Origin: Euglena gracilis
Taxonomy: Eukaryota
Assembly (NCBI GenBank): GCA_039621445.1
Contig: CP154954.1
Location: 3,229,715 to 3,293,714 of the forward strand
Direction of reading: 5' to 3'
DNA length: 64,000 nt
Under the pieces are notes generated by a model, which did no database searches, had not been told where the DNA came from, and worked only from the letters and a program-made list of their open reading frames with translations. This document shows positions 10,435-62,000 of this stretch, one piece after another. Made by a program: the position numbers and the translations under genes. Position 1 is the first letter of the stretch; each line of letters starts with the position of its first letter.

Positions 10435-10617
10435 CAGGCTGTTTTTTGTGCTAGGGCACTTTTGGCCGTGTGCCCTACCCCCCCCCCCCCCCGGGGGGTC
10501 GGATTGGGAGTGCCTTGGAGTGCCTGCCCAGGCAGGCACCCCCCCCCCCGGGGTGCCTGCCCAGGCAGGCACCCCCCCCCCGGGGTGGGGGTCGGCACCC
10601 GACTAAAATACAGCCTG
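10435..10617. mobile_element. CAG...CTG-ended MITE with perfect 8-bp TSD (duplicate of 37459-37635)
   Basis: TSD TTCTGGAC at 10427-10434 and 10618-10625. Confidence 0.85.
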
Positions 10618-31779: not shown

Positions 31780-34700
31780 TCAGTAGTTGGAGTAGCCGCC
31801 GGCTCCGCCGCCGCCCGTCTTGAAAGTTGCTGCGCTGCTTGCGGCCGCGGAACCCGGCGCGGGGGCCATAGCCGTACCCGACGCCAGGCGTCTGATTTTT
31901 AACCCGTGGGGCCCATATTGGGGAAACAATGAACCTTGTAATTGACCTGAAACGTAAATATGCGGAAAATATGCGGAAAAATGCGGGAAAATGCGGAATA
32001 ATGCGGACCGCATATTCCCCCCCCCTGCGTGGGGTGGCCAGGAAACCTGTCTTGGTACCGAACACCGCCCGGCGAACCTGTCGACCCAACCACCCACCCA
32101 AAATCAGCCAAAACCAGCACTTCAAAAAATATCACGGTCCGGCCTTTGGCTGATCAAAACTCATCCAACCCCTGGGGGTCCAGCAGCCCCAACCACCCAC
32201 CCACTCTCGAAACCCACCCAGGGGAGGGGGGGTTACACAGGTGTTTTGTGACTCCAAGAAGCCGAACAAAACAAAACGTTGGGGTGTCATGGCTCCAAAC
32301 CCCCCGGGGTCGGAAATGTCTTCCCCCTCCCCTGCCTGCCCATAGCCCCCATCCACCCTGGGGAGGTGTGACCCTCCCTCCTTAAAAGGAAGTCTGGTTG
32401 AAGCCCGCGCCAGCCTCCCCGAAGGTCTCGCGGTCCAGCTGCTTCTGCTGCTCCCGAAGCTCCTTGTCCACTTTCTGCGATGGGTCCAAGGACATGCAGA
32501 CAGGGGTTCAGCAAAACGTCGTCGAATTCGACATCCTCGTTGCAAGCATGTGAGTGACGAATTGAGGAAACGGGGTTGGAGTCGGGGAAATGCAAACTGG
32601 TTTTTGTTCAAAAATGTTCACCACAAGTTGAAAATTGAATTTTTCCCGAAAATTCATCCGATATTAAAATAGTAGGAAAAATGCAAAACGCGAAAAATTT
32701 TGGTGACAATTCCTTGTGAATCATGCAAATCTCCATCAATGCAAAAAAGCAAAGGGTCCAGTGTGCCCAGCAAGAAGGGATTTTTTCAAATTTGCTTCTT
32801 CCAAGCTGCCAAGGGCATGCTAAAAATTCAATCCTTTTTAAATTTTTAAAAATTTAAACTTAACTTTTTATTTTTTTTGTTCACCAGACACAAACGCCGA
32901 GGGTTCCTGAATTCCCTCGGATGGAACAGTCATCAAAGGAAGTCACTCTAAAATAAGCAAAGAAGAAAGGACAAGGGGAGATGCATGCCTCACCGCAGTC
33001 GCAGCCAAGGTGACAAAAGTAACGACAAAAATGGCACACATCACGTTCCATGATTATTAGAAATTCACACTTGACTGTGTATGACGACTTAAGCACCATT
33101 TGTGCATGACTATTTGGTTTTTCATTTTTTCATTCCCCCCCTCCCTATTTCCCTCGGTCGCTTGCTTAAATTATAATATCGGATGGTATGGGCTCAACAG
33201 CAGATTGAATTGGGACAGGGGGGGGGGGTGCATTCCCGCAATCACCAGAATCGTTAGGTAGCCCAACAAACAGAACTTTTGCCAGCCATTCTGTGATGGA
33301 CATGCTGGGAAGTATGTTCTAACTTGCGATATGTCGCTTGTTTGTGCTGCTTGAGCGCGAACTGATGCTTGCACACAACCACCTGGAACTATGTGCTTGA
33401 AATATGTTTGAAGCACATCGTGCAAAGTCGACTTTACCCGCCCCCCCCCCCAGAAAACGTTCCAAATCACAAATATTATGCGAATAAATTTTTTGTGGAG
33501 AGTTCATTTGGGAAATTTTCGATTGAGGAAATGCAAGAACCCAAATTATTTGTAGGCATGTGACACATAATATAATAAAATGCATAATATATACATCTAT
33601 ATAATAGTATATATCATAGACACACATGTGCATACATGGGTGTATATGTTTATATGTATACACACATGCAATATATACATGTAATGTTATATATACCATA
33701 TAAAACATATACGTGTGTACATAATGTATAAATATGTTATAATCATAATATTTTAAAATGTTTATCTAATCCGTAGGGGTACCCACTGGCTGGTGGCTGG
33801 ACCCCCACCTGGGGGCACCCCATCTCTGTCCCCACCCACCCACCCACCCACCACAGCAATGCAAGCAGTTATGCCCCCCCCCCCCCTCAAGTTGTCACCC
33901 CCATCTGTGCCGGCCAACTCGTCACATTGGCGAGACGCCAAAAAGGACTGCTTTGGGATGCTTTTGCGACCTTGATCGATTCCACGTGGGAGGGGGGGGG
34001 GGGGCAATTGACTGGGGGGCGGGTATCCTTCCAAAAGAATGCTGACTCCGGGCGGATTTGCACCTTGGGTTCAGGTCCGGTGATCTTCCGCTCCAGTGCC
34101 TCGCAGCTGATCTGGTCAAAGAAGCTCTCCTCCTTGTTGTACACCCCCTGTCGTAGGGAGAAGAAAGGGACATTAAAAATGGACTGTGCCCCTAAACCAT
34201 TGCTTCCCTTAAACCCCTCCCCAAATATAACCCCCCAAACCCCCCAAATATAAAAACCCTGAGGACCTTGAAATCCCGCCGGAATATAAAACCCCCTCTG
34301 GCGCAAAGCACTGGAAGGGAATTTTGTTGACAAAACATCTCCTCAAATTCGTCATTTTTGGCAGTTGGTAAAATTTTTTTTACCAAAAACGTGAAATTTG
34401 CTCCTTTGCCCGAAAAATGAAAATTTCGGACCCCCAAGGGTGGGCGTATTTATGATTTTGGACCGAAAAAGTGACTACTGGATCCCGCCAGGAAGTTGAT
34501 TTTTCCGACCGAATATAAACCCCCCAAATATAAAAACCCCCCTGGGAGTCTTGAAATTTCTGCCTCAATGTAAAACCAGGGGGTTTGGGGGGGTTTATTA
34601 ACAGGTGGGCATTATTCCCCAGGCAATTATTTCTCACCAATTTTTGGGGGGAAAACATCAACACACGACTCCTGTTCTCAAAATGCAGAAATTATCCAAG

Positions 34701-37700
34701 TCCAAAATGTTTGCCACCCCGGGGGGGGGGGGGGCTCCAGCTTCAGAGGCTGGAAAACTTGGGCTGGCTTTAAAAGGCTGCTGGTTAACCCCCTGCCCCT
34801 CCCCCTTCAGAACACGGGGTAGAACCACGTGCCCAGAAATCAAAAATACAAAAATTCCCCCAAAACTGCAAAACTTTACCATTTGCAAAATGGGGAGGGG
34901 GTTCTGGGTGCTGGCTGGGCAGACTTCTCCAGGGACGGTCAATTTCCTTGGAAAATTCACTTGGACTTTGGCTTATTGACACCCTGTTCCAAGCAGAAGC
35001 CAAAAAAAAATCGCCGTGGAAAAACACAAAAATAACACACAAAAAACAAAATTTGCCTAATTCAAAAAACGTAACAAGCCACAAAAAGTGTTTCCCCCGT
35101 CTGAACAAATCCTCATCACAATCCTGCACCGACCCAAGCATGCATACAATGTACATTGCATTGCCAATGTCTGACTGAAAAAAACTGCACTACAGACCAC
35201 AACCCCTTCCATATGAACATCCACGTTGCTGTGATATGTCTGGGGTCAGGGCATGACATATCAATGCACTCAAACTTCAGACCTGGGCATATATGATTTT
35301 TTGGCCCAATTTGTGAAGCAGGAACAAACCTGCCCATTCCCCTTATTACCCTGTGGGTTTTGGGGTCACGTTTGCTTCGTGGAGGCAGGGTCGGCAACCA
35401 CCCACCCACCCACCCGCCAGGCGCCAGGGGTGATTCTGGGAGTCAGTTTGGTCCGATATTTTCCGATCCCATTGTGTAGACAAAAGAGGAAACCCCCATT
35501 CTGGGGACTCGTCCCCCCCCCCCCGGGTCACTAACCATCAACAACCCCGATGTTGTTTGGGAGAATGAAACACAGCGTTTTTGCCGAGCTGCCCAATGGA
35601 TAGCTCCCAGCCACACGAGACGGTATTCAACTCAACTTGTTCGGCTGCACACAGAGGTGGTACCTTGGCGGCTGTGAACTGCAACTTGACCTTCTTGTCC
35701 TCCGCGGTCTCGGACTCACTTGCCTTCTCTTGGAACTCCTGTGCCACCTGTTGACCAGGGTCACTGACCTCACATGTGACATACACAATGCAGACTCATT
35801 CACCCAATCACCCACTCACATTCTCGCATGGCGCACTTGCATGGCACTCGATGCTGCACTACACATGCCACATGATGCTTCACATGACACACTCCACATC
35901 TCGCATAACACATTGCATCAGACGTCTCATACGACATACACAGGGTTTTGTGCCAATTGATCAGACATTGGCATCCAGCAAGAAATCTAAGAAATATCTC
36001 ACCCAAAACAACGCTTATCAACGGAGGCCCACATATGTCCAGGGGCACCTTGGTGAGGTCCAGCTTCTTCAGGTTCTCCTCGAAGTTGAATTCCTCGGCG
36101 TACTGCTTCTTGGCCGCCCCGGAGTCATCCACCTTGAAGTTGCGGCCGGTGTGCTGGTCGGCATTCGAACGAACACTGAGAGGGCGGCAAGGGAGGGAGG
36201 TGTTTGCGTGTTTGAGCAGCAGCATGAGAATGGATACTTAGAAGTAGTAATTAGATGGGGGACAAAGCCGTCATAGCACAGAAGGGCGAAGAAATGATAC
36301 ACACATGTCGATAGGCAGGGTATTAAATTATGTCTGGTTTTGAACGTTGCATTCACTTGCTCGACACTGCAAGCCACACAGCTTCAGCTTAAATGTGTGA
36401 ATGTGCTTTTTTACTCGTTGAAACAAACATCGTTCATTCCGGCCGTTTCACTTCCTTCGCAGGTCATGCTTAAGAGGTAAATGAGGACTCGGCGAATTTG
36501 ACCCCAAAATGCAGCCTCCCCGGCGCACACCTCTCGCTGCGGGGCTTCTTGCCCTCGGGGCGCCGCTCCGGGCGGCCCTCCTTCTGGTCCTTCTTCGCGG
36601 GGCGGCGGTCGTCCTTGCCCCGCTGGCGGTCGCCCTTGGCCGGCTGGCGGTCCCCCTTCCCGGTTCAGCAGCAGGGCGCAGTGGACCCTCCTCAAGAAAA
36701 CACGGCCACGGGTTTGTAGGTGTTGTCCTCAAGCTAGCGTCCCTTCTCATTTGCCGTTCAAACACGCAACAGGGGGGGGGAATTGATATCGGAGGCTTTC
36801 GGAAAAATTGCGGAAAAATTGCGGGAAAATTGCGGAAAATTGCGGAAAATTGCGGAAATTGCGGAAAAATTGCGGATATCAATTCCCCCCCCTTGCACGC
36901 AAGCACCCATGCAGCTTCAGCTTAAACCTGTGAACGTGCCTTTTTAATCGTGGAAACAAATGTGTTCGTTCCGGTTGGGACGATTCACTTCCTTTGCAAG
37001 TCATGTTTTATACATAAATGAGGACTCGGCAACGAAATTTGACCTCGAAGTGCAGCCCGCTGACCACCCCTGGCTGGCCTCACCTCCCAGCAGGAATACG
37101 GGAATGTGCCGTTGGGGCATGCGACAACGACACACTGTGCCACGATCACTGCCCTTGAAGAAAACGGAAGGTGCTGTCCCAAAATGTGCTGTTGACACAT
37201 TGCGTTCGGGGGCAGGTACAAGACGCGCTTCAACAGAATTTTTACCAAAAATTGCCCTGCCTAATCTGCATGGTGTTCACAGGCCCCCTGCTGCCCCTCC
37301 CGAGGAAGCGACCACTTCCAAACTGTCTACTGAACTCTGCGCGGCGGTCGTCCTTCCCACCGCCGCGGCGGTCGTCCTTGCCGCTGCCCCGACGATCATC
37401 CCGACGGTCGTCCCGGCCGGCCTTGAGGGCATCCCCCCTTGGCTGCCCTATTCTGGACCAGGCTGTTTTTTGTGCTAGGGCACTTTTGGCCGTGTGCCCT
37501 ACCCCCCCCCCCCGGGGGCGTCGGATAGTGCCTTGGAGTGCCTGCCCAGGCAGGCACCCCCCTCCCCGGGTGCCTGCCCCGGCAGGCCCCCCCCCCCCCG
37601 GGGTGGGGGTCGGCACCCGACTAAAATACAGCCTGTTCTGGACCCCCCCCGATTTCTGACCCCATGCAACTTATTGCATATGTGCAAGATATCTGGTACG

Positions 37701-40700
37701 GGGTACACCGACCAACCACAGTACCGCACGAGGAAAAGAGGCAGGTCGCACCACCGGCCACCAAATCAACGCATGGCATCCCATTGGGATTCAGTTCTCA
37801 TAAACCCCCCTCAAAAACAAGACCCGGGTCTTATTTTTGGGTCCGTTGCTGGAAGCCTCTAGGGGAGGTCTTATTTGGGGGGGGGGGGTTGCTTTATCGA
37901 CATGGGACCGAAAAAAAAAACCATTTTTCAGGTTACAAAGAACACAAATATGTTTCTTCGGCGCTTTGCGCCATGTGTAAATTGGTGTAAATTGACATTT
38001 ACCATGTTTTTTTGCACTTCAAAAATCTGAAATTTTTTGAAATTTCATCATTTCTGTGTATGAAATTGTGATTTTTTGTAACTTTTCGGGAAAAATTTTC
38101 ACCGTCCCCGGCGCTTCGCGCCGTCAGGGGGGTCTTATTTATGGGGGGTCTTATTTTTGGATTTTTGCTTGATCAGCCCAGGGGGGTCTTATTTTTGGGG
38201 GGGTCTTATTTTGGGGGGGGGGGGTTAGTCAAAACACAAAGTCTTGAGTTTCACAACCGAAATCCGACAAACTCCCATTTGACACGTTAGATGCTCACTA
38301 TGGAATGCCCTTGGTGGTCCGGGGGATACAAAAAAAATAAAAACAATACAAATAAAAATGTAATAAAAAATTGTAAAATAATAATAATACTCGCATGGCG
38401 GGGTGTCCCACAGGAGGAGATGGGCGCCGCCGCGCGGGGGCTCCCAGTCACGGTCGCGGCGGTCGGGACCACCATACGACCCGCGGTCGTTGTAGCGCGC
38501 GCCGCCGTACGACCCGCGGTCGTTGTAGCCGCCGCGGGGCTGCCAGCCGCGGTCCTGGTAGTCCCGGCCGCCGCCGTAGCGCTGGTCCCTGCGCGGCGAC
38601 AGCGGCGTGGCCACCGCGCCATAGTCAGTCAGGCAGGAATCAACCCCCCCCCCCCCCGAATAGTGGTCCCTGCCCCGCTACCGTTAGTAGCTCCGGGGCT
38701 GAATTTGACCAACCGCAGGGGGGAATGGGGTCTCCGAGTGCCCTGGAGTGCCTGGGCAGGCGATGCCTCCCTGGCTGTGGGAGCATGGCGTGGCATAAAA
38801 AAGGGCCCTCATCCGGACTTTTGGTGCCGGAGTAAGCTCTCGCTTTCGTGCCTTTGGTACTTTTGGTCGTGTGCCCTGCCCCTGGGTGGGGGTTGGATCC
38901 AGACACACCCCCATGGTTGGGGTCAGGCCCACCTTCCAACCCTGTACAGCCCCCCTGGGGATATTGACTCAAATGCCGATCAGTAGCTCCCCCCCCTCCC
39001 CTGTGCAGAGGACAAACTTGACTAAAGCTCGTGCATGCACCTGATAGAAGCCCCACCCCGGAGAACTTGACCAACGCGCATGGCAGTAGCCCAATCAGGT
39101 GGCCGTTCCCGCCGGCAATCATCGAGGAACAGGACCCGCACCAGACACACCGATCGTCCCGCCCGCCGTAGCGGGCCCCGCGGTCCCGGTCCTCGCGGCG
39201 GTCGTCCCAGCGGTTGTCGGGGCGGTCGCGGCGGTCGTAGCCGTAGCGGTCCTGGTCGTAGCCGTAGCGATCCCGGGGGGGCCCGCGGGGGGCCGGCCGG
39301 CCAAGGTACTCGTCCCGAGGGGGGCCGCGGGAGGCGAACTGCGCGGAAAGGCGCCGCGGTGCAGGCGTGCAGCCATTCATGGGAAATCTGGTACTGCTTT
39401 GGGCTTTTGGCAATGCTTTGCTATCATTCCAGGTTGGTTCGACCCCCCGGGGGGGGGGGGCATGGTACTGGCCAGGGAATCGACCGCTGACCCGGGCAAA
39501 GCCGCACAACTGCACAACGCGCACCGTGATGGGTGGCCCCTGCCAGCCGCTGCTCGGGGCGCTGGGGGCGGAGGGCGCCTGCCAGGCGTTGAGGATGGCC
39601 GGGTCCGGCGGCTGCGCCGTCTGCTTCTGCACCGCGTCGAACACCGTCAGGTCCTGCAGGCCCGAGCCAACTCAGGGTGAACCCCCCAAAACGAACATTC
39701 CCCCCTTCGATGTTCAGCAAAAATGCAAAACCAGACACCCCCCAAAACAAGAACCCCTCGGGATTTTCGGGGAAAACCCAAAAATATTACCCTCCCCCCC
39801 TGTAAAACTGTGAAAATGCCCCCCAAATAGGTGATTTTTGACATTTTTCATTTTGCTCATTTTTGCATCCATTAAATTGGCATTTCTTGCGACACTTTTT
39901 ACTCGTTGCCAAAAAATCGCTCTTTTCAAACAGATTTTTGTACCCTCCCGCAGGAAGACTGAAGACTTTGCAGTCGAATAATTCAGCGAAAATCCAAAAA
40001 GAAAACCTTGAAGTTTCAGCAGTGGACCCAAAGAGTAAGGGCCTAATTGGGCTAGCTACTGCCCACTCGTGGCACAGGGTGGATGGCCCAACAGGGGATG
40101 ACACCCCCCCGCGGGCTGACCTGTTGGGCCATCCACCCTGTGCCACGAGTGGGCAGTAGCTGCCACTGGGGAATTCACAGCCAAAGGAAAAAGAAGGCAC
40201 CAAAAATAACACGCCTTTTTCTGTGTCGATGGTTTACTTTTTGCTGTTTAAAAAAAAAGTTCCAACCCGTGATTTTTGCACTTTTGAGGCGATTACTTCA
40301 TACACTTGCAAAAACGCAATTGCCCAGTCAAAGAAAACATGACCAAATTCACAAAAAAGAGCAATGAAAAATTTTAATTAAAGAATGAAAAAATTTGGGC
40401 TGGTGTTGTTTCACAGCAATAAAAAGTGGAGAGTAACAAAAAAACACAAAATTTTCCAGAGCCAAACTACCGGGGGGGGGGAAATTGAAGCTAGATAAAA
40501 TTAGACCCGACAAAATTGGAAGCCGAAAAAATTGGTGCCAAACCTGAAAACTGCCCGGAAAAAATTGGCAGGTTTTGTTTGCAAGATGACTGGAAAAAAG
40601 GTGATTTTGAAAATTTTGAGGCAGGATTTTCAAAAAAGGTCCGGAAAAATTTGGCAGGATTTCTGTACGCCAATTTTTCCCAATCAATTTTTTCAGCCTC

Positions 40701-43333
40701 CAATTCCCCCCCGGTAAAACGTATAGAAATGCACCTCCACACCCCCCACTCACCCAATGATATTGTTCAGTGAGTTATGCTTATCCACAGTTGGGGGTTT
40801 TTATTCTGCAGTTGTCGGTAATTATTTGCAGGTAGCCGCAAATGCAAAAAATACCGGTATTGAGGGCAAAGCATCCAAAAAAAATGTTGAAGAACAAGGA
40901 ATAATAATAGATGTAATGGAAATAATATAACATTAAAAGAATAATAAGTATTGATGGAAACATATTGGGAAGGTTAGATTGAGAGAAATGCAACTTCTGA
41001 AAATGTCTGAACTTACCAAATACCCAGATAGAAAAAGGAATATGACCTCCATCCAACCCAGGTGAATGCTCCCTTGGTAAAAAAAACATGTCCACCATGC
41101 CAGACCGCAATGACCATGCCAGACCGCAATGACCAGCTGTTATCCACAGTTGTTTGTACCTGGAGGTTTCAGGCTAATCCGTCGTTATCCGTAATGATCC
41201 GTATCCTGATGTGCACAAATGCTTGGATTACCCCCCCCCTATGTCCAATGACCGGCAACCTCTGCCCTCTGACCGGGGGGGGGTGGTCGTTGGACATAGG
41301 GTAGTGACCAAAAAGGTGTCCTCTGACCGGGGGGGGGGGGTGGTCGTTGGACATGGGGTCGAAAGAAAGTTGGTGGGTACCCGGGTCCCTACCCACCCAA
41401 AAATGCAAAAAAATTCCCTTCCGGCGCTTTGCGCCGAAAATTTTGGGCAATTTTGACAAATTTTTGTCCAAAAAGTGACAAAAATGGCATTTTGGCCACA
41501 CGCCGGGACGAAAAATTTGGTCAAACCTCCGAAAAGGTGTCCTCTGACCGGGGGGGGGTCATTGGAAATAGGGGGGGGGTAACACCAACCAGCTGGCTGA
41601 AGCTGCCACCGGTGCTGGATGTCGTCTGGCATTGGGAAATGTAGGTCTGCTTGAGGAAATTGGCACTGCGACTTGTAGTTGTTAACTTCCCACCCCCAGC
41701 ACGGGGGAAAGGAGTACCTTGATGTCGGAGCCCCGGAAGATGATGAACTCGTACAGCTGGTCCGCTGGGGGGATCTGGGGCCCCTCCTTCTTGCGCCCTG
41801 TGTCAGAGACGAGTGCACACGGCCGTGTTTTTGGTCTTCATTTCTTAAAAACTCAAAAATTTTTCTTAAAAACTCAAACCGCAAACGTTTCTCCTTTTTG
41901 GGGTCCGTTTCTCGCAACAGCTGAGGCAACCAAAATGGACCTGAGCCTCCCAAAAATGGAGGGGTTCTTTTTGCTCGGTCGGCCCAAAGGAGAGCTTGGG
42001 TTCAGTGTCCTGCGAATGCGCCACAACTTTATTGCAACTGTTCACAATCCCGACCCATCGGGAAAATTCACGTAAACAACATTCCGGGTTTGTAATATGG
42101 AAACTTTTGGGGTCCCCGATGCAGCTGAACTACCCCCCCCCCCCTAGTCGTATGACCGGGTTCCTGCAACCTGTGACCGGGGGGGGTGGTCATAACACCC
42201 CCATAACCTGCAACCTGTGACCGGGGGGTGGTCATAGATGAGGGGGTGGTCGTAGAAGCGTGTGAAAAGTGTCCCAAAATGGCATTTTTTACCCCCCCCA
42301 AAATGCCCCATTTTTCAAAAATCCGGCGCTTCGCGCCGGCAGGGGGAACCTTATTTTGGGGGGCCCACTTCATGGCATTTTGCACGGAACGGCCAGTGGG
42401 TGGACGTCATATGGGGGTTAAATTTTTTTCGCAACCGGCAACCTGTGACCAGGGGGGGTGGTCATAACACCCCCATGACCTGCAACCTGTGACCGGGGGG
42501 TGGTCATAGATGAGGGGTGGTCGTACGACTAGGGGGGGGGGGGGTACCTCGGGAACAGCAAAATCGTCCGGTATTGGCCAAAAGAATTCAGGCTGTCAGG
42601 TGACTGTTTCCCGGGTGGGGAGGGTTAGCACCGAGTCCTCCTCTTGTACCTCAAATATGAGAAACTGCCAAGTAACATCCACCCCCCCCCAAAATCCCGG
42701 TGCGCCTTTCGATGAAATTTGACTCAAAAATAAAAGAGTTAAATCTTTATTTTCTGAGATTTTTTTGTGCTTGCATTGCAAAGAGGCTGGGTTCGGACAC
42801 TCTCTGGCGTCACCCCCCCCCCCTTTGTCCAATTACCGATTACCTCTGTCCTTCGAGCAGGGGGCGGTCGTTGGACAACGGGTTAAAAAAATTGGCGGGC
42901 ACCTGGGACCCTACCTCACAAAAAAGGTCAAATCTTTTTTTACGGAGTTTCGCGCCTTGGACAATTTCAACAAATTTTTGCCAAAAAGTGTCAAAAATGG
43001 CATTTTGGCCAATTTTTTAGCTGATTTTGATGGCAAAACATTTCGGCCCGGCGCTTTGTGCTGGGCCAAAAATTCGGACAAACCTCCGAAAAGGTGTCAT
43101 CCGACTGGGGGGGGGGGTTGGTCGTTGGACATAGGGGGGGTTACTTTGAGATCGGCACAGCGGACAGCATCGGAAACATTCGGGGTGGAACCTTCGGTGC
43201 CAAACATGCGGACGTTCCGCAGCGCGACGGTGTTCTCATCCGGGTTGATGCTGTAGAGGAAGCCCTCGTAGCGGATCTCGCTCTTGCTGATGAGGCTGAT
43301 GCGGCTGCCCTGGAGGCCTCCGATGCCGGCCAT
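31780..43333 (-). CDS. LSM14: Lsm14/Scd6 (RAP55/Trailer hitch family) mRNA decapping activator and translational repressor, 12 exons, about 462 aa
   Basis: Exons in minus-strand order: 43192-43333, 41718-41797, 39525-39653, 39151-39338, 38426-38588, 37336-37424, 36531-36659, 36049-36175, 35664-35747, 34064-34147, 32400-32474, 31780-31879. All junctions are phase-compatible. The translation shows an LSm14 domain ([21 protein letters not shown]...VRMFGTEGR...[23 protein letters not shown]), an RG/RD/YG-rich middle, an FDF-like box ([13 protein letters not shown]), an FFD box ([14 protein letters not shown]), a TFG box (QLDRETFG) and an RG/G-rich tail. Eight introns are GT-AG; introns 5, 6 and 11 are non-canonical, and the ends of 5 and 6 are uncertain by a few nt. 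One extra base at 31823-31825 shifts the last exon in this copy. Confidence 0.93.
31880..32399 (-). other. Euglenid-type nonconventional intron (Lsm14 intron 11); duplicate at 4861-5380
   Basis: Junctions TTC|AACCAGAC...GCCTGGCGTC|GGG: CAG at +4..+6, CTG at -8..-6, pyrimidine|purine at both junctions, no GT or AG. Removal joins the TFG exon in frame to an RG/YG-rich terminal exon. Confidence 0.8.
36660..37335 (-). other. Probable intermediate/nonconventional intron (Lsm14 intron 6); duplicate at ~9635-10311
   Basis: GA|GTTCAGTAG...CTGCTGAACCGG|G. GT start with CAG at +4..+6 and a 9-bp terminal stem (GTTCAGTAG/CTGCTGAAC); non-AG 3' end. An in-frame TGA just upstream of exon 7 forces the acceptor into this window. 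Confidence 0.55.
37459..37635. mobile_element. CAG...CTG-ended MITE with perfect 8-bp TSD, inside Lsm14 intron 5
   Basis: CAGGCTGTTTTT...AAAATACAGCCTG flanked on both sides by TTCTGGAC. Confidence 0.88.
37803..38226. mobile_element. AACCCC...GGGGTT-ended element in Lsm14 intron 5
   Basis: CCCCCCTCAAAAACAAGACCC at left, repeated GGGTCTTATTTTGGGG at right. Confidence 0.65.
41231..41579. mobile_element. Poly-C/poly-G-ended MITE family A, TA TSD
   Basis: TA|CCCCCCCCCTATGTCCAATGACC...GGTCATTGGAAATAGGGGGGGGG|TA; homologous copies at 42813-43140, 47801-51135 and 62235-62648. Confidence 0.88.
42133..42544. mobile_element. Poly-C/poly-G-ended MITE family C, TA TSD
   Basis: TA|CCCCCCCCCCCCTAGTCGTATGACC...GGTCGTACGACTAGGGGGG|TA; internal direct repeats of gcaacctgtgaccggggggtggtcata. 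Confidence 0.88.
42813..43140. mobile_element. MITE family A, diverged copy in Lsm14 intron 1
   Basis: Colinear with 41231-41579; ends GTCGTTGGACATAGGGGGGG. Confidence 0.8.
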
Positions 43334-43339: not shown

Positions 43340-43380
43340 ATCGAACAGGAACGCTGCGAGGAACGGGACGTCACTTGTTT
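43340..43380 (-). promoter_or_regulatory. Candidate spliced-leader trans-splice (or 5'UTR intron) acceptor upstream of the Lsm14 ATG
   Basis: Pyrimidine-rich tcccgttcctcgcAG ends at 43354, 20 nt upstream of the ATG at 43333. SL trans-splicing is established for Euglenozoa; use of this site is inference. Confidence 0.35.
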
Positions 43381-45468: not shown

Positions 45469-46438
45469 ACCCCCCCAAATAACACCCCCCGGTGTGTTTT
45501 TTGGGCACCCGAATGGGACCCCGGGGGGGGGTGTTATTTGGGGGGGTGTTATTTTTACATGGAAAACAGGAGGGGGTGTTAAACCCCCCCAAAAACACCC
45601 CCCCAAATAATACCCCCCCCTCTTGGGGTCTAACTTCGGCCGCCGAAATAATACCCCCCCCCCTCGGTCTCGGGCCGAAGGCCCCATTCAGGCTTCTTTT
45701 TAAGACCCTGGGGGGGGGAGGGGGGTCCCCCCCACCCACCCAGGGTGGCGCGGGACCCCCCCCGGGGGGGGGACCCCCCAAAATCGGGCCCGCTAAAGGC
45801 AATTTTCAAAAATTTTCGGCGCTTCGCGCCGAAAAGGTATACCCGGCGCCTCCGGCGCGGGACCCCCCCCACCGGGGGTCCGGCCCGGACACAACCCCTC
45901 CGGGGGGGGGGGGGGGGTCAGGTGTCTTAAAAAGAAGCCTGGCCCGGATTTTAACCTGAAAATGTAGGTAAAAATCACAATCTCTGACAACAAATTACGA
46001 AAAAAAAATCAATTTTTCTGGATCATCTGACCTCCAAAAAATGGTAAATTTCACAAGAAAGTGCAAAAAAAATGACCCCAAAGGGGGTTTTGGGTGCCAT
46101 TTTCGGTTTTACGGGACTTCGAAAAATTTCGAAAATTTTGGAAAAATAATACCCCCCCCCAAAATAATACCCCCCCTCGGGCCGGAACTTCGGGCGAAAA
46201 AATAAATACCCGGGGGGGAATTATTTGGGGGGGGGGTTATTTGGGCGCGCGAAATCGGCCCCCGAGGGGGGGGCGTTATTTGGGGGGAGTTATTTGGGGG
46301 GGTGTTATTTGGGGGAGTATTATTGGGGGGGGGGGTGTTATTTGGGGGTGTTATTTGGGGGGTGTTATTTGGGGGTGTTATTTGGGGGGCTGTCGTTTGG
46401 GGGGGGTGTTATTTGGGGGGGTGTTATTTGGGGGGGTT
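45469..46438. mobile_element. ACCCC...GGGGTT-ended element with (GGGGGTGTTATTT)n subterminal arrays
   Basis: CCCCCCAAATAACACCCC repeats at left, inverted GGGGTGTTATTTGGGG repeats at right, TA on both flanks. Similar architecture at 7190-7573, 37803-38226 and 61155-61568. Confidence 0.75.
45689..45941. mobile_element. CAG...CTG-ended MITE nested in the 45469-46438 element
   Basis: 18-bp TIR CAGGCTTCTTTTTAAGAC / GTCTTAAAAAGAAGCCTG; degenerate TSD GCCCCATT / GCCCGGATT. Confidence 0.8.
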
Positions 46439-47447
46439 TACTTGATTCTTGTGCTTGACCATCCACACCTCCCCCTTAGTTGCACTGAGGCTTCTTGTCT
46501 GTTTATGGCCGCGGTAACTTCGCTTCTGGACCAGTTTGTGTGGTGAGTGGACCCCTTGCACCAGTGCTCTTGTGTTGCTCCCCCAGCTGGTGAGCAACTC
46601 TGGTGTGATTCCAGCGCTGTGAGGACATACACGCACCTTGGGTGGTTGCCAGGGCGGTCCCTAAGCAAAAAAAAAATCCTGTCCCCATACACTTCAACCG
46701 AAAAATAAGGAAAAGGGGATTTTGGCCAGGGAAAATTTTGAAAATTATTTTGAAAAATGAACCCAAAATACACAATTTTTTTGATGGAAAACCACATTTT
46801 CCCCAAAAAAAACTCAAAATTTTAGAGTTGAAAATTGTTAGTTTTTAGGAGGGCGTTCAAAAAAATGCAGGTCAAAAAAAAGGGACCAAATTTTGGAACA
46901 TTCAAACTCTTGGAAATTTTTTGGATTTTCAATGGCTTTTTTTGCTTCAAAAAACTCTCAAACCCAAATTTTTGAGAAAATATTCAATTTTTGGAAGGTG
47001 TGAAAAAATGGGGTTTTGAGGGGTTTTTGGGGAGACCTCTCATATGGGTCCCAAAATGGGTCAAAAAAAAAGTTGGTGGCCGAAGGCGCCGGAAAAATTT
47101 TTCGGGTCCAATTTTTCGGGTTTCTGTGTATTGGGGGGGGGGGCGGTCCTTAAGGGGCGGTCCTTAACTAAAAAAAAATCCCGTCCCTTATGGCCCGCCC
47201 TGGTGGTTGGTGTGGTTGGTGGATTTATACCCTTGCACCTCCCACCCTCCCACCCCCACGTGGCAATAGAAATGACAGGGGTGCAACAAACTACGCACAA
47301 AAAGGTGGTGATGGACAGGCTCCTTTTTCACAATCCCGAAGGGGGGGCAGGTGCCTTGTTCTCTGGGAGATCTGTATGGGTCCTAGCTCTTCTGTTCCCT
47401 AGAAAATGACCTTTTTCTGGCTCTCAGTGCCTTTTCTGCCTGGGGGT

Positions 47448-47719
47448 CAGGGGTTTTTTTAAGACCGGGGGGAGGGGGGGGTCCCCCCACCCACCCACCC
47501 CCTGGGGGGGCCCCCCTGGGGGGGGGTCCGGGGGACCCACAAAAAATGGCCGAAAAATCGCAAAAAGTGCTAAAAATAGATTTTTTCGGCGCCTGCGGCG
47601 CCGAAAACTATATCCCACCCCCCTCCGGGGGGGACCCCCCCGGGGGGGAGGGGGTCCGGCGGACCCACCCACCCTACCCCCCCCTCCCCCCCGGGGGTCC
47701 AAACTTAAAAAAATCCCTG
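47448..47719. mobile_element. CAG...CTG-ended MITE with 8-bp TSD
   Basis: CAGGGGTTTTTTTAAG...CTTAAAAAAATCCCTG; flanks CTGGGGGT / CTGGGGGGT (one-base homopolymer difference). Confidence 0.82.
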
Positions 47720-49495: not shown

Positions 49496-49965
49496 GGACA
49501 TTTGCGCTTAAGCGCAAATTTTTAGCTTGCGCTTAAGCGCAAATTAAAAATTTGCGCTTAAGCGCAAGCTAAAACAGAAGCCGCTGAGTTTGTGGGAGTC
49601 CCTCTGATGTGTTACGGTGTGTCGGGGGCCCCTCTCTGCATGGCCAGTGTACGGGCTTGGTGAGGAAATACATTTGCGCCGAAGCGCAAGGGACATGCCT
49701 ACATAATGCACTGCTTGTTCATCCACATTACACGTCAGCCGCGTGTTTGCACTTCTTAGTTTTTTGTATGATGGTTTGCGCTTCGGCGCAAGGTATTTCC
49801 TCACCAAGCCCGCACTCTGGCCATGCAGAGAGGGGCCCGACACACCGTAACACATCAGAGGGACTCCCACAAACTCAGCGGCTTCTGTTTTAGCTTGCGC
49901 TTAAGCGCAAATTTTTAATTTGCGCTTAAGTGCAAGCTAAAAATTTGCGCTTAAGCGCAAATGTC
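49496..49965. mobile_element. Foldback element with ~190-bp inverted arms
   Basis: GGACATTTGCGCTTAAGCGCAAA...TTTGCGCTTAAGCGCAAATGTCC; arms are near-perfect reverse complements around a short spacer. Confidence 0.88.
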
Positions 49966-52900: not shown

Positions 52901-54094
52901 TTTTAGAAATGTGTCCAGGCATTAAGAAGCAAAAACTAACAATTTGCAACATCGAATATTTTGAGCCACGAGTCATAAAAATGCATGAGAAAAAATGCCT
53001 CCTGTGGGGAAGAACCAGGACAGTGGCGATCATACAGTTCCCCTAGTAGGCTGGGTTACAACGTTTTTGTTGTACCCACAAACAAGAACAAACAATCAAG
53101 AACAACAGCCTAAAGCTCGATGTGAAACAAATTGTTCGATTTCGCCCAAAAGATCCACGCCGTCAGACAGAATTGTATATTTGACTGGAACCACATAAGG
53201 CTTTTTTTTTGTTTCCTCGTTTTTCTTTCTCAGTGTCACTCAAGAAGCACACCTCCCCAACAAGAAACTGTCATGACCCAAAACCTGCCAGGGGCCTTGG
53301 TGCTGGCATTCATACAACGTTTGTCGCATTGGCATCAAACTTCTGACCGAAAAGGCCCTACCACCCGAGAAGTGCAAACCAGGGTTCGCAATACCACCCA
53401 GGAAGTACCCACCCCCCAGCCACGGGCTTTGTCGGGTTGGTCAGCAGGAAGAACCCTGACAGTTTCCAGAGCGGGCACCTGACAGGTTCTCGGGGGTCGG
53501 ACATTAGCACAAATTCTCAATACATGTTCAAGTGCAAAACCAAAAGCATTTTCATCAGCACTCAGCAGGGCAGTCCTTAACGGAAAAAAAATTCCCGTCC
53601 CAGCACATTCAATGAAAAATTCATAAGAAATAATGGAAGAAAAAATGGCCATATTTTGGCGAAAATGGGTCGACTCTGAGAAAAAAGCTATTTCTGGCAT
53701 CCTTGGACCATCCCTTGGGCCAAATGGCGGTCCTGTAGGGGTGGTGCTAAAGGGAAAAGAAGACTTCCCATCCCTTTTGGACCGCCCTGGCACTCAGGAA
53801 GTTGTTGCATAACTGTTGGGACACCAGAGTTGGAAAAACGGAACAGGAAGAGAAAGGAGTCATGAAAAAAAACAAATTCAATGAAACAGAACAAAGGTTT
53901 GTCTCCGCAACAAATTTCTACCCTGTCAATATCCCGTTTCCAAAATGTCACCACACGCCTGGAAGCATTCAAAATTGGAAAAATTGCTAAATTGCAGAAC
54001 ACTCTGAACAAACAAGGCACCCTTTCGAAGAAATTGTCGGTGACCACGGCGGTCAACCGAGGATGCAAAGGTAAAACGCGTGCGTGCACAGTAG

Positions 54095-55208: not shown

Positions 55209-56092
55209 GGCTTGGTGGCTCGGCCAACAATAGGAAATCAAGGGAGTGGATCAAAAAAAAATCGGTTCCATGGGAAGGCACATCTCAACGTTGCATGATC
55301 TCGGATGGACGTTTGTCCCCTAGGCTGAGGGCCTCTCGTTGGAGTCACCATAGATCAGAGGCACTTCACATGGGTGCTTGCCCACGGACGACGACTGCGC
55401 GACACGCTGGCGTATGGCGAGCACTTTGCCATGCGTGGCAGGAGGGAATGGGGCGATGCCAGCCGACATGCAGTGGTAGCGCGACGAGAGTGCTCGTGTG
55501 CAAGTGCATGGGTGACAAGTCCACGGATGGACATGGTTGCGGTTGGTATGCGTGTGGTTGCAGAAAAAGGGAGGGGATTGGTCGGCACTGACCGGCTCAG
55601 TGAGAAACCACAGGGATGCGTATAACTGCAGCTGATGCGGCCTGCAGCCTGCTGGCTTCTGTTTCCTTCTGGGCTGCAACGTGCACCATTCCCATCCGTC
55701 TCAATCGTGATGTGTGGGCTTTTAGAACTGGGTGTGCATCGCCGCCTTCAAATCAAAGCCAAGTCCCCTGGGGTTGATGATTGGCACACCAGAACATCCA
55801 AATGCTGATCGGCAAAAACGCACTCCGATGATCACCCAGAGGCGCAGAAAAGGCAAAATTTAGGCTTAAACTGCTTGGCCCAGGCACCCCAAAGTCCCAG
55901 GCATAATTTGAAAAAAACAACGGACAGAGAGCAGGGGGGTGGCCTTCCATCGAACGCTGAAAAAAACGTGCCTCTTGTTGTCCCTTGTCAAACATTGTTC
56001 TCCGGGCACAGGTTGCTCGGCCGAGTGCTATTGAGCAGAGACAGAATGAGAGAAGCCGAAAAAATTGGGGGGCTGAGGAAGGGGGTCTACAA

Positions 56093-59000
56093 CGGCGAAA
56101 GGGGCCCTTGTAGCCCACACTTCCTTGCCGGAACCACTTGGGCGGAGGGAAAGCACTCGGTTGGAGGAGGGTTAGAGAGAACAGCATGGGGACTGGCCGG
56201 TGCTGACCGAACCTTGTTTCCACTTTCCGGCATAAACCTTGGCGTGCGGGCACAGCGAAAACAGCCTCTGAAGCCTGAGCCACAACCAGCAGAAGGCCGG
56301 AGATGGGTTGGGCTGAGATGCCTGAGCTCACACCTGGCCCTCGGGAGACTCCCGCCTCGCAGGTTTGCCAGCACCGGGGGCCCGAACAGTTCCCCGCAGG
56401 CTTTTTTTTTACCGACCGGGGGGGTGCTATGGGGTGCCTGCCCATAGCAGGCACACCCCCGGGGGGGGGGGGGCAGCCCGGGGTACCCAGGGTCGGCTGG
56501 GTCCTTGCCAACAGGGTAAAGAAAACGGGATCGTTTCCCGGACAGGGGTGCCTGTCCACCCACCCCCCGTGGAGTAGGCACCCAACTAAAAAAAAAAAGC
56601 CTGGTTCTCCGGTGTCACGACCTCGTGGGCCCACAGCACGCAACCCCCCTTCCCTGGGGGGGGCCGGCTGTGGAGGGAGGGTTGGGTCGGGTCGATCGGG
56701 GCTGCAACGACCGCACCGCAGAATTGCCCTTTAGCATCTTATTTGACAGCTGTGAATTCTGGGTCAAAGTAGAAAGCAAAGAACTCGTACTTTGTCACGC
56801 AATCCTGAAAATGCATGGGCAAGGAACCTTCCTCTTCAGAAATGTGCACCGAAACCAGCTTGGAGGTCAATCAGACAAGAAAGAAGAATGGAGTGCTTTG
56901 TGTCGAGCTCCTGCAAGCTGTGGACACTTTCCAATGCGGGATGATGAAAGACTTCGTAAAGAGGTAGTTAGTGGGAAGGTGGCGTATGGTGAGACCCCCT
57001 GATCTTTTTTTTTGGTCGGGCTTTTCCGCCATCAGATCTATTTACGTGTTTTCCGCTGTTGCAGACACTCTTACACACTTGTTTACACTCACTGTCACGC
57101 ACACGGTCACACCGGGCATCCCCACCCAACAACACCAGCAACCCCTTACCAACCCCAGAGTTGGCTACCCAAAAACTGAACAGTTCATCCACCACAAAAC
57201 CATAAAGGAATCAAAAATGCGAGGTGAATCTGCCTTGTGCCCCAAGGTCGGGGTTGGAAATTACAACCCCCCCCGGGAAACTGTCACCTGACAGGTTGGC
57301 CAGTACTGGGGACCCTGACAACTTCCTATCATGACAGGTTGGCCGGTACCAGGGACCCTGACAGTTTCCCGGGCGGGTCCCTGACAGGCTCTCGGGCATG
57401 ACAGTTTCCCGGGGGGGGGGGGGGTAATCGCAGGGCGGTCCTTCAGAAAGAAGAAAAACGCTGCCCCAGCCAGGCTGTTTTTACCACCCCCCGGGGGAGG
57501 GGGGTCCGGACTTGAGTGCCTACCCCGGGGGGGGGTCGGATTTCAGCGTGTGCCCAGGAACTTTCCTCAGAAAATAGGCCATTTTCCTTGAAAATAGGCT
57601 TTGTTTGAGCCTTCCGCGCCTTCGGCGCAGGAGTGCCTGCTAGGCACTTTTGACCGAGTGCCCTTCCCCCAACCGGGGGGTCGGATTTTTGTGCCTTGGA
57701 GTGCCTGCCCAGGCAGGCACCCCCCCCCTCCGGGGTGGGGTCGGCACCCGACTAACATACGGCCTGGCCCCAGTACATTCAACTGAAAATCCACAAAGGA
57801 AAAATGGCCAAAAAAAAAATGGCAAAAAAAAAGACTTTTCGGCAAAAACAGGTCGAAATCATGGGGGGAATTGATTTCTGGCATCCTTAGACCTTTGCCA
57901 AACCAGCCAAAACATCAAAAAAAATAATTTGAACACTTTCGACCCCGTTCAAGCCCTAGACTGACTGTTCAAGCCAGACCAGCACTTGGTCGACCCTTTG
58001 GCCCGGGGGGGGGGGTCCATTTAAAAAAAAATCCCGTCCCTTGCGGACTACCCTCGACAATTGCGGATTATCACCAAGAGCCCCAGCCCTGAACTGCTAT
58101 TTGTTTCCCAATCCCGACCGACTGAATCCTGGCTTTCTGGGACACCCCTGTTTGTGACACTGTGAAACTCCCAGACAGGCCAAGGTATTCAACCGACCAG
58201 GAGTCCAAACTGGGTGGGATTCGCCACCCCCCTACTCCACTTCTACGGGAGAGGCGTCCCTTCCCAATCAGACAGCAGTCCGGCGAAGCCTGGGCCAAAT
58301 TTTCCGGTTCCCTCACTTCTCTGTGAAGTAGAACACGCCGTCCCACGGCCGGCCGGCCTCCGCGTGCTCCAGCTGGGCGCAGGGCTGTGCGGGAAGGCCT
58401 GGTGGGGAGGGTCGACCTCGACCCCAGGGGTTTTTTTTAAAGACCGGGGGGAGGGGGCCCCCACCCACCCACCCCCTGGGGGCCCCCGGGGGGGGGGGGT
58501 CCCGCCCACTAAAGCCGCGAAAAATTCCAAACATAGCACCTTTTCAAAAAATTTCGGCGCCTCCTCGACCCACAGGGTTGCGGGGATTCCCATAGAGCCC
58601 TGGCTGGGCAGCCAGAGCGGCCCACGCCTTGTCCGGCGGGGCCAGCAGCGGGTTGGCCGCCAGCAGCTGCCGCGCCCGTTGGTGGTCCCCGGCAGACCGC
58701 CGTGCCTTGGAAATGAGCAAACGTGCAAGCCGGGCTATTTCAGAGTTGGGAGAAGCTGAAAACACGGAGTGCCGGAGAATCGGGAGCATACCCCCCCCTT
58801 GTCTAAGCACTGGAAAACATTGGTAAGCATCAGAGGGCTGGTGCTTGGACAACGGGGAAATTTTGACTTGCAAAAAAAATCCGGCGCTTCACGCCAAAAA
58901 GGAAAAATTACCCCCCCCCCCAATTGAAGCACGGGTGCGCTTCTATTTGGGCCGTACCTGCGCGATTTTTGTTGATTTCCTTTAGAAATCCTATCAAAAT

Positions 59001-62000
59001 GGGGGGTGCGCTTGTAGCAGACCGCCGCCTTCGGCGGTGGGGGGGTGCGCTTTTATTTGGACCCTGCGCTTGTAGCGGCCCCGTGCTTCTATTAGGGGGG
59101 GTTACCCTTATTTTGGAGGTCCACTGTTGCACTCACAGGCATTTGGATGCAAAAATCAACAATGTCTCACCATATCAGGCTGCAGAGGTTTCAATAATTT
59201 TCAAACTCTCGAGAAAATTTTCTAAAAATGCACCCAAAAAAAAAGCTTCCGCAAGAAGATGACCTTTAAAAAGATGGGTCATCACCGGGGAGGGGGGGGG
59301 CTTAGACAAGGGGGGGAACAGTGTAGGTGTAGAGTCCACCCTCTGGATGACTTGGCAGGAACCCTATACATGCCACAGCACTTCACAAAGCAACACAAAG
59401 GGCAGAAGTTTCACCTGGCTTGCACAGGAGGGACAGAAATAGATTGAGGGGCACAACGTGGGACTGAGCACGGGTGTTTTGTCCCATTTCAAGGAATTTC
59501 GGAATTGGATTTAAAACTGGACAAAACAAGGAACATGGCGTGGAGACACAAGACACGTGGAACTTAGGCTATTCCCTGGACATGATGCAGATTTCAAAAT
59601 AAAGGGTTGCCACAGGGCTAAAGAACCAAAAGGGTGGGTTTGCAGGACAGCGAATGCTGAGCGCATGCGCAATGGCATGCAAAACAGATTGAGTGCAAGT
59701 TAGGTCGCCTGGGTGTCTGTCTCAACTGAACATCTCATCAGAGCATTCCATCAGGCATCGGAATGGCACAATTTGGCCCAGTTCATCCAGTTCCGAAACA
59801 CACAACATCCGACACCTGGGTGAGAGCACACATTAAAACCAGCCGGCACAGCACGGCATGGCACGGCACAGCGGACTGGCCGCCAACCACCATGGCGGCA
59901 TACGCCTCCTCGTACCCCTCGGCTGACTGCAGGAGCACCGCACGGTCCACGAGTGTCCAGTGATAGGTCACCTGGCCGGGGGCAGGCCGGGGACAACTCC
60001 TACCTGGTGTTGGTTGCTCAAGCCCAGCGAAGGAAAGCACATGGCTCAGAGATGAAATTATCGAAATCGTGAGCAACGTTTCGCGAGTTCGTGCCATGAC
60101 GCTTTTTTTATAATAAAAAAACTTGTTACGCGAGGAAATAAATATCTCGAGCAGAATTGCCCTGTCAAAAAAATAGGCATGCTTCCCACAAGGGAAAAGA
60201 AAAGTGTATGATGGTGCGTAACATATTAGCCAAATGCATGGCAATGTGTGTGCTTGTTTTTTGAATGTGTCCGTGAGTGCAATATGCTACATGTACGTAT
60301 GCGTGTATGTCTGTCTGTCTGTCTGTCTGTCTGTCGTTCTGCCTGCCTGCCTGTCTGTCTGTTTGTCTATCTGTCTGCCTGTCTGTCTGTCTGTTGTATG
60401 CATATACGTATGGACGCATGTATGCATGCATGTGTGCATGTTTGTGTGTATGTATGCGTGCATGCATGTTGGGGGGGGGATGCTCTGGACGGCCCTCGGA
60501 AAAAAAAAACGAGCAAAAAATTCGCTGAGTTTGTACATTCATAAGGGAAAAAGGACTCAGAAAAATTTCCAACAATAAGCCCAAAATTAAACCAAAATCA
60601 TCAAAAACAGCTGAAAAAAAGGCATTTTTGGTATATATATAAAAAAATGCACGAGCAAGGCGTCACTCTCTGTTCACCATAACCAACAGTGTCAGCCATG
60701 GTTGCCCCTTACTTATGACCAGGGGAGTAGGATTCGATGTGGGGTCTCTGAAAACCCCAGTGTCCTCATCATCATTGGATGAGTACCCACACCTCATCAC
60801 CCAAGGGATTTTTTTCTTGAGGCGGGTCCCTTGGGTGGAAAAAAAAGTGCGGAAATGGGTCCGTTGGTTATAGAAATGGGTTACTTGAACGTGGGCAAAA
60901 TTCGGTGAGCATGTGGTTTGATTCGTGCTGAAGAACGGTGTGGAATAACACCAATGTCAAGTTTGTTTTTGACATATGGACAATGTGGAAAACATGGGCA
61001 ATATGGACAAAATGCCTCCAAAAAGTGTAAAAAAAAGTGGGAAAATGGGAAAAATGCGCAAAAAAAAATGCGCAAAAAATGCGCATTTTTTGAAAAATTG
61101 ACAAAAATGCGCAAAACTGCGCAGCGCATCCCCCCCCCCCCTGATGCATGTGTAAACCCCTCCCCCCACTTAAAAAATGCCCGGGGTTTATAGGATCCGG
61201 TTTAGTTGGTCGGCCCGGGGGGGGGGGGGGGTTATAGGTGGGGGGGTTATAGGATACGGAATTGTTGGTCAAAATCCGACGCCCAAAAATGCCCTCGAAA
61301 CCCCCCAAAATTGGCAATTTTTTGGCAAATTTGGTCAAAAATGGCAGTTTTGATGATGGTCGGTCTCAAAAAATTGCCAAAAAATCAGTTTTTCAGTGGT
61401 TTGCGGCTGAAAAAAATAGTCCCCGGCGGTTTCCATTTTTCTTCCCCGGGGGGGGGGTTATAGGATCGATCCGGTTTGGCTGATCGGCCCGAGGGGGGGG
61501 TTTATAAATGGGGGGGGGTATAAGTGGGGGGGTTATAAGTGGGGGGGTTATAAGTGGGGGGTGGGGTTTATGTATGCATATGTTATTCTGTATATGCATG
61601 TATGTGTGTATATGTATACAGATATCTGGCAGCCTCACTCTACTTTCTCCCCTCCTGGGGGGGAAATTAGAATGATCAGGGGGGGTCATACCGGGGGGAA
61701 AATAACAGCAACAAATGCCGATGGGAAAAATTGTGCCCGTATTAATTATTGGACGCTCGCTTATTTATTATTTACTAATTGCTCGCTGAAAAGCGGGCCC
61801 CCAGGGAAGATTCTGAACGAAAAAAAAATCTTGTGAACCAACTTTTCAGGGAAACACAAGAGAAATCACACCAAAATTCGAGGTTGTCACAACTCCAAAA
61901 AAAATTGTTAAAATCCTAAACTCCAAAATGCAAAATAAGGCAAAAAATTCTTTTATTTTGAATTGACGGAGTGCCGAAAATTTATATTTCGCAAAATTTG

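Follow-up and report, generated by a model that had tools for sequence, protein, structure and literature searches.

On the evidence presented here, we interpret a 207-bp element at positions 56397-56603 of a 64-kb window of Euglena gracilis DNA (the whole stretch analysed, 64,000 nucleotides of contig CP154954.1) as a young non-autonomous DNA transposon, more precisely a MITE (miniature inverted-repeat transposable element), lying in non-coding nuclear DNA. We give this interpretation, which makes no claim on the transcription of the site, a probability of about 0.72. The element belongs to a class with CAGG...CCTG termini which makes 8-bp target-site duplications (TSDs) and which is represented by at least seven independent insertions in the window. 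Judged from its sequence, it is a real MITE pre-adapted to excision as a nonconventional intron, and as an intron it is a candidate only. A preliminary description of the locus had gone further and proposed that the element was caught acting as a young intron inside a coding exon; its account of the insertion has stood up to closer analysis, its account of the exon has not.

The arms of the element, CAGGCTTTTTTTTT (56397-56410) and AAAAAAAAAGCCTG (56590-56603), are complementary at all 14 positions, and they are directly abutted by 8-bp repeats that agree at seven of eight positions; a flush 8-bp repeat of at least this quality is expected by chance with a frequency of 3.8e-4 per pair. Terminal inverted repeats (TIRs) and a flush TSD of fixed length are thus both present, and the element has the small size and the lack of coding capacity that characterize MITEs. 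The coordinates, arms and flanks given in the preliminary description are confirmed by the sequence, and so is the view of the element as an inserted transposon whose TSD can still be recognised, given the 14/14 TIR, the 7/8 TSD and a whole class of flush 8-bp repeats above chance. The terminal 12-mer of the element, with at most one mismatch, occurs 11 times in the window (shuffled sequences contain 1.85 on average and none of 100 reached 11), and internal motifs are found again in other members of the family. Both flanks of the element are unique within the window, which leaves the notion of a MITE nested in an older repeat unsupported.

A strict scan of the window for CAGG...CCTG pairs situated 60-1500 bp apart, with a TIR of at least 11/14, yielded 34 pairs, seven of them bordered by flush 8-bp repeats of at least 7/8. 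When the scan was relaxed to CAG...CTG pairs with a TIR of at least 10/14, and controlled by shifted repeat registers and by 50 locally shuffled windows, such repeats were found in 7 of 280 pairs, at the same seven loci. Shifting the repeat register by 1, 2, 3, 4, 5, 8 and 12 nt left 0, 0, 0, 1, 0, 0 and 1 of the 280 pairs, respectively, and the shuffled windows contained a mean of 0.04 flush-repeat pairs, with a maximum of 1. Two of the seven loci (10435-10617 and 37459-37635) represent one insertion copied by segmental duplication, so that six are independent; a seventh independent insertion (57471-57766) was recovered by similarity. The scan was also extended to all 64 terminal trinucleotides (34,833 pairs), and among the results listed CAG...CTG is the sole class with repeats in complex sequence. 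The other trinucleotide classes with multiple matches among these results correspond to AT microsatellite, to G/C runs or to a palindrome near 49.5-50 kb; no CGG...CCG elements with TSDs appear among them, and CGG...CTG is represented by one low-complexity match only. The elements of the CAGG...CCTG class are heterogeneous, with common terminal and internal motifs that include C-runs, G-runs and GGGGTGCCTG-like hairpins. They are set in a transposon-rich neighbourhood: 56-60 kb contains 580 element-like bases, and 44-48 kb contains 1101. Inside the element 58380-58602, another start resembling that of an element, at 58425 (CAGGGG(T)8AAAGACC), shares ~86% identity with the 82 nt that begin 47448-47719, which points to insertions that are nested or adjacent.

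These scans bear directly on the question of whether the element is a transposon at all. Inverted ends and an 8-nt repeat could in principle result from double-strand-break repair or local duplication, and for a gapC intron of recent gain break repair has been proposed as the source of its 8-nt repeats (PMC4770533; here and below, statements on published work refer to the parts of the papers accessible to us). The absence of a second identical copy from the window and the fact that no transposase turned up would agree with such an origin. We nonetheless consider it extremely improbable, in view of the at least seven independent loci that combine CAGG...CCTG termini, flush 8-bp repeats and common internal motifs, which is a signature of transposition and would not be expected if repair had acted separately at each locus.

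MITEs of the hAT superfamily have an 8-bp TSD, short TIRs and the terminal motif YARNG. The class described here is like them in its 8-bp TSD and short TIRs. The elements starting at 56397, 10435 and 45689 have CAGGC termini, and those starting at 46650, 47448, 53566 and 58380 have CAGGG termini; the CAGGG-ended members presumably fit the hAT motif, whereas 56397-56603 ends in CAGGC. Merlin transposons, already reported from E. gracilis, have near-perfect TIRs and 8-bp TSDs, the superfamily being characterized by a TSD of 8-9 bp and a conserved 5'-GG terminus (PMC8101967). The resemblance to Merlin lies in the TSD length; in contrast, the repeat flanking our element abuts CA/TG, and the terminus is CAGG/CCTG and not 5'-GG. 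General Pfam scans, which were not aimed at transposases, detected no transposase family among 16 open reading frames (ORFs).

The nonconventional introns of euglenids, which make up ~72% of the introns in a Euglena genome, obey a code that has been defined genetically as 5'-N3-CDG...CHG-N5-6/R (the slash marks the splice junction), with base-pairing after the CAG and ahead of the CTG (PMC12501133). In the same study, fully synthetic 50-bp introns with only those features were spliced, one of them having a 12-bp poly-A/poly-T pairing, and a C as the next base after N5 was unfavourable. The minus-strand junctions of our element read ...ACCGGAG/AAC CAG GC(T)n...(A)nGC CTG CGGGG/AACTGTTC. This corresponds to AAC as N3, CAG at +4 to +6, a 14-bp stem, CTG at -8 to -6, CGGGG as N5 and a following A, and it matches the published code; the junctions had thus been read correctly in the preliminary description, which had assigned them to the established euglenid register. 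Read on the plus strand, N5 is followed by a C, against the purine rule. The earlier statement that 56392-56606 comprises the element and one TSD also holds (5 + 207 + 3 = 215 nt, or 3 + 207 + 5 as read on the minus strand). The base-pairing that brings the intron ends together would be provided by the 14-bp TIR stem, which closes the predicted fold of the 215-nt RNA (minimum free energy -106.9 kcal/mol, z = -2.67; none of 200 shuffles was equally stable).

The consequence of this geometry would be as follows. The nonconventional pathway of Euglena cuts 3 nt ahead of a CAG and 5 nt past its CTG partner. Since 3 + 5 equals the 8 bp of the duplication, a minus-strand transcript through the element would lose the element together with exactly one copy of the duplication (56392-56606), an excision that would restore the pre-insertion sequence. 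This is a matter of arithmetic from the CAG/CTG termini and the TSD length; that the copy at 56397-56603 would itself be spliced is what we infer from its sequence. Across the class, the purine rule is satisfied by 9 of 16 element-strands (the duplicated pair being counted twice). This is about the chance level, and there is thus no sign of insertion-site selection.

The nonconventional code operates in this window. The element is located ~13 kb upstream of an LSm14/SCD6 gene, the LSm domain of which was revealed by ranking ORFs by the difference in GC content between third and second codon positions (GC3-GC2). The ORFs 43100-43480 and 41685-41837, both on the minus strand, match Pfam PF12701 (LSM14) with 63 and 31.1 bits (cut-off 30) at profile positions 4-46 and 41-70, respectively. 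Solved structures of LSm14 N-domains (2vxe, 6f9w and 2fb7) are matched as well. A search with exon 1 returned 54 proteins at E <= 1e-5 among 66 candidates; the best full-length match is EG_transcript_4567 in EukProt (462 aa, 100% identity), and the next relatives are from Eutreptiella gymnastica (97%) and Bodo saltans (85%). The EG_transcript_4567 protein maps exon by exon onto 43333-31783. With the EG prefix read as Euglena gracilis, this correspondence makes it nearly certain that the DNA comes from that species or from a very close relative. Every donor/acceptor pair reproducing this protein was enumerated, one mismatch being allowed for introns 4 and 6, and of the resulting 11 introns 8 are GT-AG and 3 are not. 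The GT-AG introns contain C-rich tracts and have a G at donor position -1 in 8 of 8 cases. Introns 6 and 11 follow the register of the published code exactly (N3-CAG...CTG-N5, then G).

Only 280 of the 29,413 CAG...CTG pairs of the window (0.95%) reach the TIR level of intron 6 (10/14). The 8-mers flanking CAG...CTG in introns 6 and 11, taken together, are identical at 8 of 16 positions (p = 0.027 for a match rate of 0.25 and 0.074 for a match rate of 0.30), which is suggestive of decayed duplications, no more. Beyond the termini, no similarity of the proven nonconventional introns to the MITE families was found. Intron 5 has CAT...ATG at +4 to +6 and -8 to -6, outside the published CDG/CHG rule, although the transcript evidently lacks this intron. 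A MITE of 177 bp (37459-37635), situated 26 nt from the 3' end of intron 5, is tolerated as well. This sister of our element lies within an intron and is not an intron itself. Among the GT-AG introns, intron 3 (186 nt) is in frame and stop-free.

Does the element at 56397-56603 interrupt a protein-coding exon? In that case a minus-strand exon (56701 to 56334) would lose it as a nonconventional intron, 56607 being joined to 56391. The geometry fits the code exactly, the removal of 215 nt gives an open frame of 142 codons, and in the proposed frame the one mismatch of the TSD (GGA/GGG) would leave the amino acid unchanged. The segment is also bounded by an AG-like motif (TTGCAG/ at 56702) and a GT-like motif (/GTGTGAG at 56333), and an upstream donor, ACAAA/GTACGAG, would join in phase. 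We regard this explanation as very improbable for several reasons. Once 56392-56606 is removed, five of the six frames are open over at least 92 codons across the junction (236, 153 and 92 codons on the plus strand, 142 and 242 on the minus strand), so that an open frame at this place carries no weight and the restoration of the frame, put forward earlier as evidence for an exon, is uninformative. In the proposed frame, GC content by codon position is 0.87/0.74/0.58 in the 5' part, the third position being the lowest of the three, and 0.78/0.61/0.83 in the 3' part. The corresponding codon-usage scores (-0.29 and -0.07 per codon) are negative, as is that of the putative upstream exon (-1.01, with a GC3 of 0.62). 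All 11 real LSm14 exons have a GC3 of 0.81-1.00 (0.91 when pooled) and, on this scale, which was not cross-validated, score from +0.70 to +1.96 per codon in the true frame, the highest value in other frames being +0.20. A six-frame scan with the same score recovered all LSm14 exons in both copies together with a few GC-rich patches, and it gave no exon-like segment at 56334-56870.

Comparisons with known proteins lead in the same direction. In Pfam, no family rose above the cut-off for ten ORFs including the 325-aa ORF that runs through the site. The 175-aa ORF 56090-56614 (minus), which holds the 3' part, was compared with proteins in the range of 96-307 aa; the 167 candidates all failed to score in this search, which covered only 20 residues of the putative exon. 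The 43-aa ORF 56742-56870 (minus), corresponding to the upstream segment, gave no score for any of 3 candidates among proteins of 77-2000 aa; against 1.84 billion representatives it gave seven weak multi-stretch matches (best E = 3e-7, 26-58% identity), which were judged spurious. The transcript proteins of E. gracilis are part of the collection in which neither the ORF with the 3' part nor the upstream segment had a credible match. Exon 1 of the LSm14 gene, which served as a control, did retrieve proteins derived from transcripts, at 100% identity. The proposed upstream donor has an A at position -1, where the 8 real donors of the window all have G. Canonical exons in phase had been placed on both sides of the element. 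Motifs resembling AG and GT are indeed present, at 56702 and 56333, whereas coding flanks and in-phase exons were not confirmed. With codon-position GC and codon usage unlike those of the 11 real exons, no six-frame signal and no Pfam or protein match, the location inside a coding exon is not supported, and the element is probably not in an exon.

Some observations nevertheless count against a MITE in plainly non-coding DNA. The acceptor-like and donor-like motifs do bracket the site, and the donor resembles those of the real introns 4 and 7; the GC3 of 0.83 in the 3' part falls in the range of real exons. The codon yardstick derives from a single gene which is compositionally odd (RD/RG-rich), and it was not cross-validated. 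Protein collections may miss weakly expressed genes, and the 31-aa 5' half was not searched alone. Moreover, BLAST found no second full-length copy of the element in the 64-kb window, the sole full-length match being the element itself. The context of 56397-56603 may be transcribed or even coding.

The element could also lie in a transcribed but non-coding context on the minus strand (an intron, an untranslated region, an outron or a non-coding RNA) and be excised as a nested nonconventional intron. The code is satisfied on the required strand, and in published synthetic introns the cis-features suffice for splicing (PMC12501133). The sister element in intron 5 of the expressed LSm14 gene indicates that such nesting occurs. 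On the other hand, the neighbourhood of 56397-56603 is dense in similar elements and devoid of exon-like sequence, and we consider this explanation unlikely.

Compared with known systems, the element shares with the nonconventional introns of euglenids (PMC12501133, PMC3935182) the CAG at +4 to +6, the CTG at -8 to -6, the purine and the pairing of the ends, all on its minus strand. An intron of this group, however, is one that is removed from a transcript, and at the site of our element no gene can be demonstrated. Another comparable case is gapC intron 4 of Euglena agilis ACOI 323, which is strain-specific, newly gained and spliced, and the eight-nucleotide direct repeats of which its authors attribute to break repair (PMC4770533). 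It is like our element in being a young insertion with junction repeats of eight nucleotides, the same length as the TSD of 56397-56603; unlike our element, it sits in a known gene, it is polymorphic between strains and spliced, and its repeats have not been assigned to a repeated mobile family. Introners and introner-like MITEs, as described in Micromonas, dinoflagellates and Fritillaria (PMC11282704), are likewise short TIR elements with a TSD that sets the splice register, and their insertion, together with splicing by the host, could give rise to an intron. What defines them, nonetheless, are numerous near-identical copies that sit in the introns of genes unrelated to each other, and they are mostly GT/GC-AG, whereas the pathway of our element would be non-GT-AG.

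The general idea that MITEs gave rise to nonconventional introns with TSD-like repeats is already published as a hypothesis (PMC3935182, PMC4770533, PMC11282704, PMC12501133). It was proposed in 2013, when no transposable element had been identified in euglenids (PMC3935182). A review of 2024 refers to 'TSD-like' repeats and a likely MITE origin (PMC11282704), and the 2025 paper on the code takes up the same suggestion again, with direct repeats reported for 84.4% of introns (PMC12501133). In the accessible parts of a diplonemid paper (PMC12621601) and of a survey of E. gracilis introns (PMC11170887), the MITE hypothesis is only cited. In the literature searched, supplements excluded and as far as the texts were accessible, we came across no publication that names the mobile family, describes the 8-bp TSD as a class trait or points to the relation 3 + 5 = 8. 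Nor did a search for reports of a euglenid genome with annotated DNA transposons yield anything of relevance.

Table 1. Features of the 64-kb window discussed in the text (window coordinates; a slash marks a splice junction; the strand is left empty where none was assigned)
Feature	Position	Strand	Remarks
MITE-like element, 207 bp	56397..56603		GC 0.63; direct reading and repeat finder
Left TIR, CAGGC(T)9	56397..56410	+	14 nt, 100% complementary to 56590-56603
Right TIR, (A)9GCCTG	56590..56603	+	pairs with 56397-56410
TSD, left 8-bp copy, GTTCCCCG	56389..56396	+	7/8 identity with 56604-56611
TSD, right 8-bp copy, GTTCTCCG	56604..56611	+	7/8 identity with 56389-56396
Predicted excised RNA, 215 nt, if minus strand transcribed	56392..56606	-	AAC-CAG...CTG-CGGGG, next base A
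Putative exon of the preliminary description	56334..56701	-	coding status unsupported: GC3 0.58/0.83, codon score -0.29/-0.07 per codon, no homolog
Family member, 183 bp	10435..10617		TSD TTCTGGAC 8/8; copy of 37459-37635 within segmental duplication
Family member, 177 bp	37459..37635		TSD TTCTGGAC 8/8; inside nonconventional intron 5 of LSm14 gene
Family member, 253 bp	45689..45941		TIR 14/14 (CAGGCTTCTTTTTA); flanking 8-mers only 5/8
CAGGGC...GCCCTG element, 553 bp	46650..47202		TSD 7/8; both ends similar to 53566-53789
CAGGGG(T)7...(A)7TCCCTG element, 272 bp	47448..47719		TIR 13/14, TSD 7/8
CAGGGC...GCCCTG element, 224 bp	53566..53789		TSD GCACTCAG 8/8
Degenerate relative of 10435-10617, 296 bp	57471..57766		TIR 9/14, TSD GCCCCAGC/GCCCCAGT 7/8
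CAGGGC...GCCCTG element, 223 bp	58380..58602		TSD 7/8; second element-like start near 58425
LSm14/SCD6 gene, complete	31783..43333	-	12 coding segments, 8 GT-AG introns, 3 nonconventional introns
GT-AG introns of LSm14 gene	43191..41798, 41717..39654, 39524..39339, 39150..38589, 36530..36176, 36048..35748, 35663..34148, 34063..32475	-	
Nonconventional intron 5, 1001 nt	37425..38425	-	GCC-CAT...ATG-CCCTC/a; TIR 9/14; hosts element 37459-37635
Nonconventional intron 6, 676 nt	36667..37342	-	GCG-CAG...CTG-CTGCT/g; TIR 10/14, flanking 8-mers 4/8; transcript-anchored
Nonconventional intron 11, 520 nt	31880..32399	-	AAC-CAG...CTG-GCGTC/g; TIR 8/14, flanking 8-mers 4/8; transcript-anchored

Further features of the window were recorded in the course of the analysis. 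A segmental duplication (3-10740 and 27059-37758, ~98.85% identity) carries LSm14 exons 6-12; its first copy ends at a run of 13 N (10741-10753), so that the duplication may be an artefact of scaffolding or a haplotig. From one copy to the other, the MITE inside has diverged further (92.9%; 183 vs 177 bp) than its flanks. In the last LSm14 exon (31783-31885 vs 4765-4866), copy 2 has a 1-nt insertion (TT to TTT) that shifts the frame relative to the transcript, with which copy 1 agrees; the insertion is due to an assembly error, or else copy 2 is broken. A near-perfect long palindrome at 49496-49966 (arms 49496-49689 and 49776-49966, 96% identity) holds GCTTAAGC motifs and is a source of spurious matches to a TIR plus TSD pattern. 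A different MITE is possible at 26330-26784, with a TIR of 13/14 (GGGGTCACAGTAGT / ACTACTGGGACCCC) and flanks CCCGGGAG/CCCGGGGG that agree at 7 of 8 positions, in low-complexity sequence that makes it uncertain. Dispersed repeats of 150-260 bp with 83-95% identity link 14739-14895 to 57267-57423, 41236-41498 to 62250-62505 and 52322-52532 to 59105-59316. A motif translating as '...PPPGQRTPF...' recurs at several places, and most long ORFs of the window are of low complexity. No Rfam families or tRNAs were found in the 64-kb window.

Outside the window, a metagenome scan with the 24-nt unique flank of 56397-56603 gave no match. Four metagenome loci that carry two element termini at the right spacing were rejected, since they are long palindromes, rich in AT, that include tRNA-like parts. 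Their inverted repeat extends past the supposed termini, the flanking 8-mers match at 0-1 of 8 positions, and there is no TSD. These loci, unrelated to the Euglena elements, consist of ~200-bp palindromic units between CAGGC(T)n and (A)nGCCTG, with tRNA-like segments inside.

What the window may tell about the origin of nonconventional introns extends beyond the single copy at 56397-56603, the value of which is smaller: this copy serves as a clean, young reference and is a candidate rather than a demonstrated intron. An element class with intron termini, intact 8-bp TSDs that demonstrate its mobility and a TSD length equal to the summed splice offsets would make the MITE hypothesis directly testable genome-wide, and on their sequence features the CAGG...CCTG elements are the best concrete candidates known to us for the transposons behind the nonconventional introns of Euglena. 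We tentatively propose, at somewhat less than even odds, that CAGG...CCTG MITEs with 8-bp TSDs are the mobile source of these introns and that the 3-nt/5-nt register exists because 3 + 5 = 8. Precise excision at the RNA level would make landing in an exon harmless, since a pathway that removes the element and one duplication allows transposons to insert into exons without damage. If this is true, the window would show the whole series, from free young copies such as 56397-56603, with intact TSDs, through a copy nested in an intron to the old introns 6 and 11, which have the same termini, degraded TIRs and half-decayed 8-mers. It would also explain why splice sites lie 3 and 5 nt outside CAG and CTG and why most intron junctions carry 'slidable' direct repeats, and it would suggest that the excision machinery evolved as an RNA-level defence neutralising this class of transposons.

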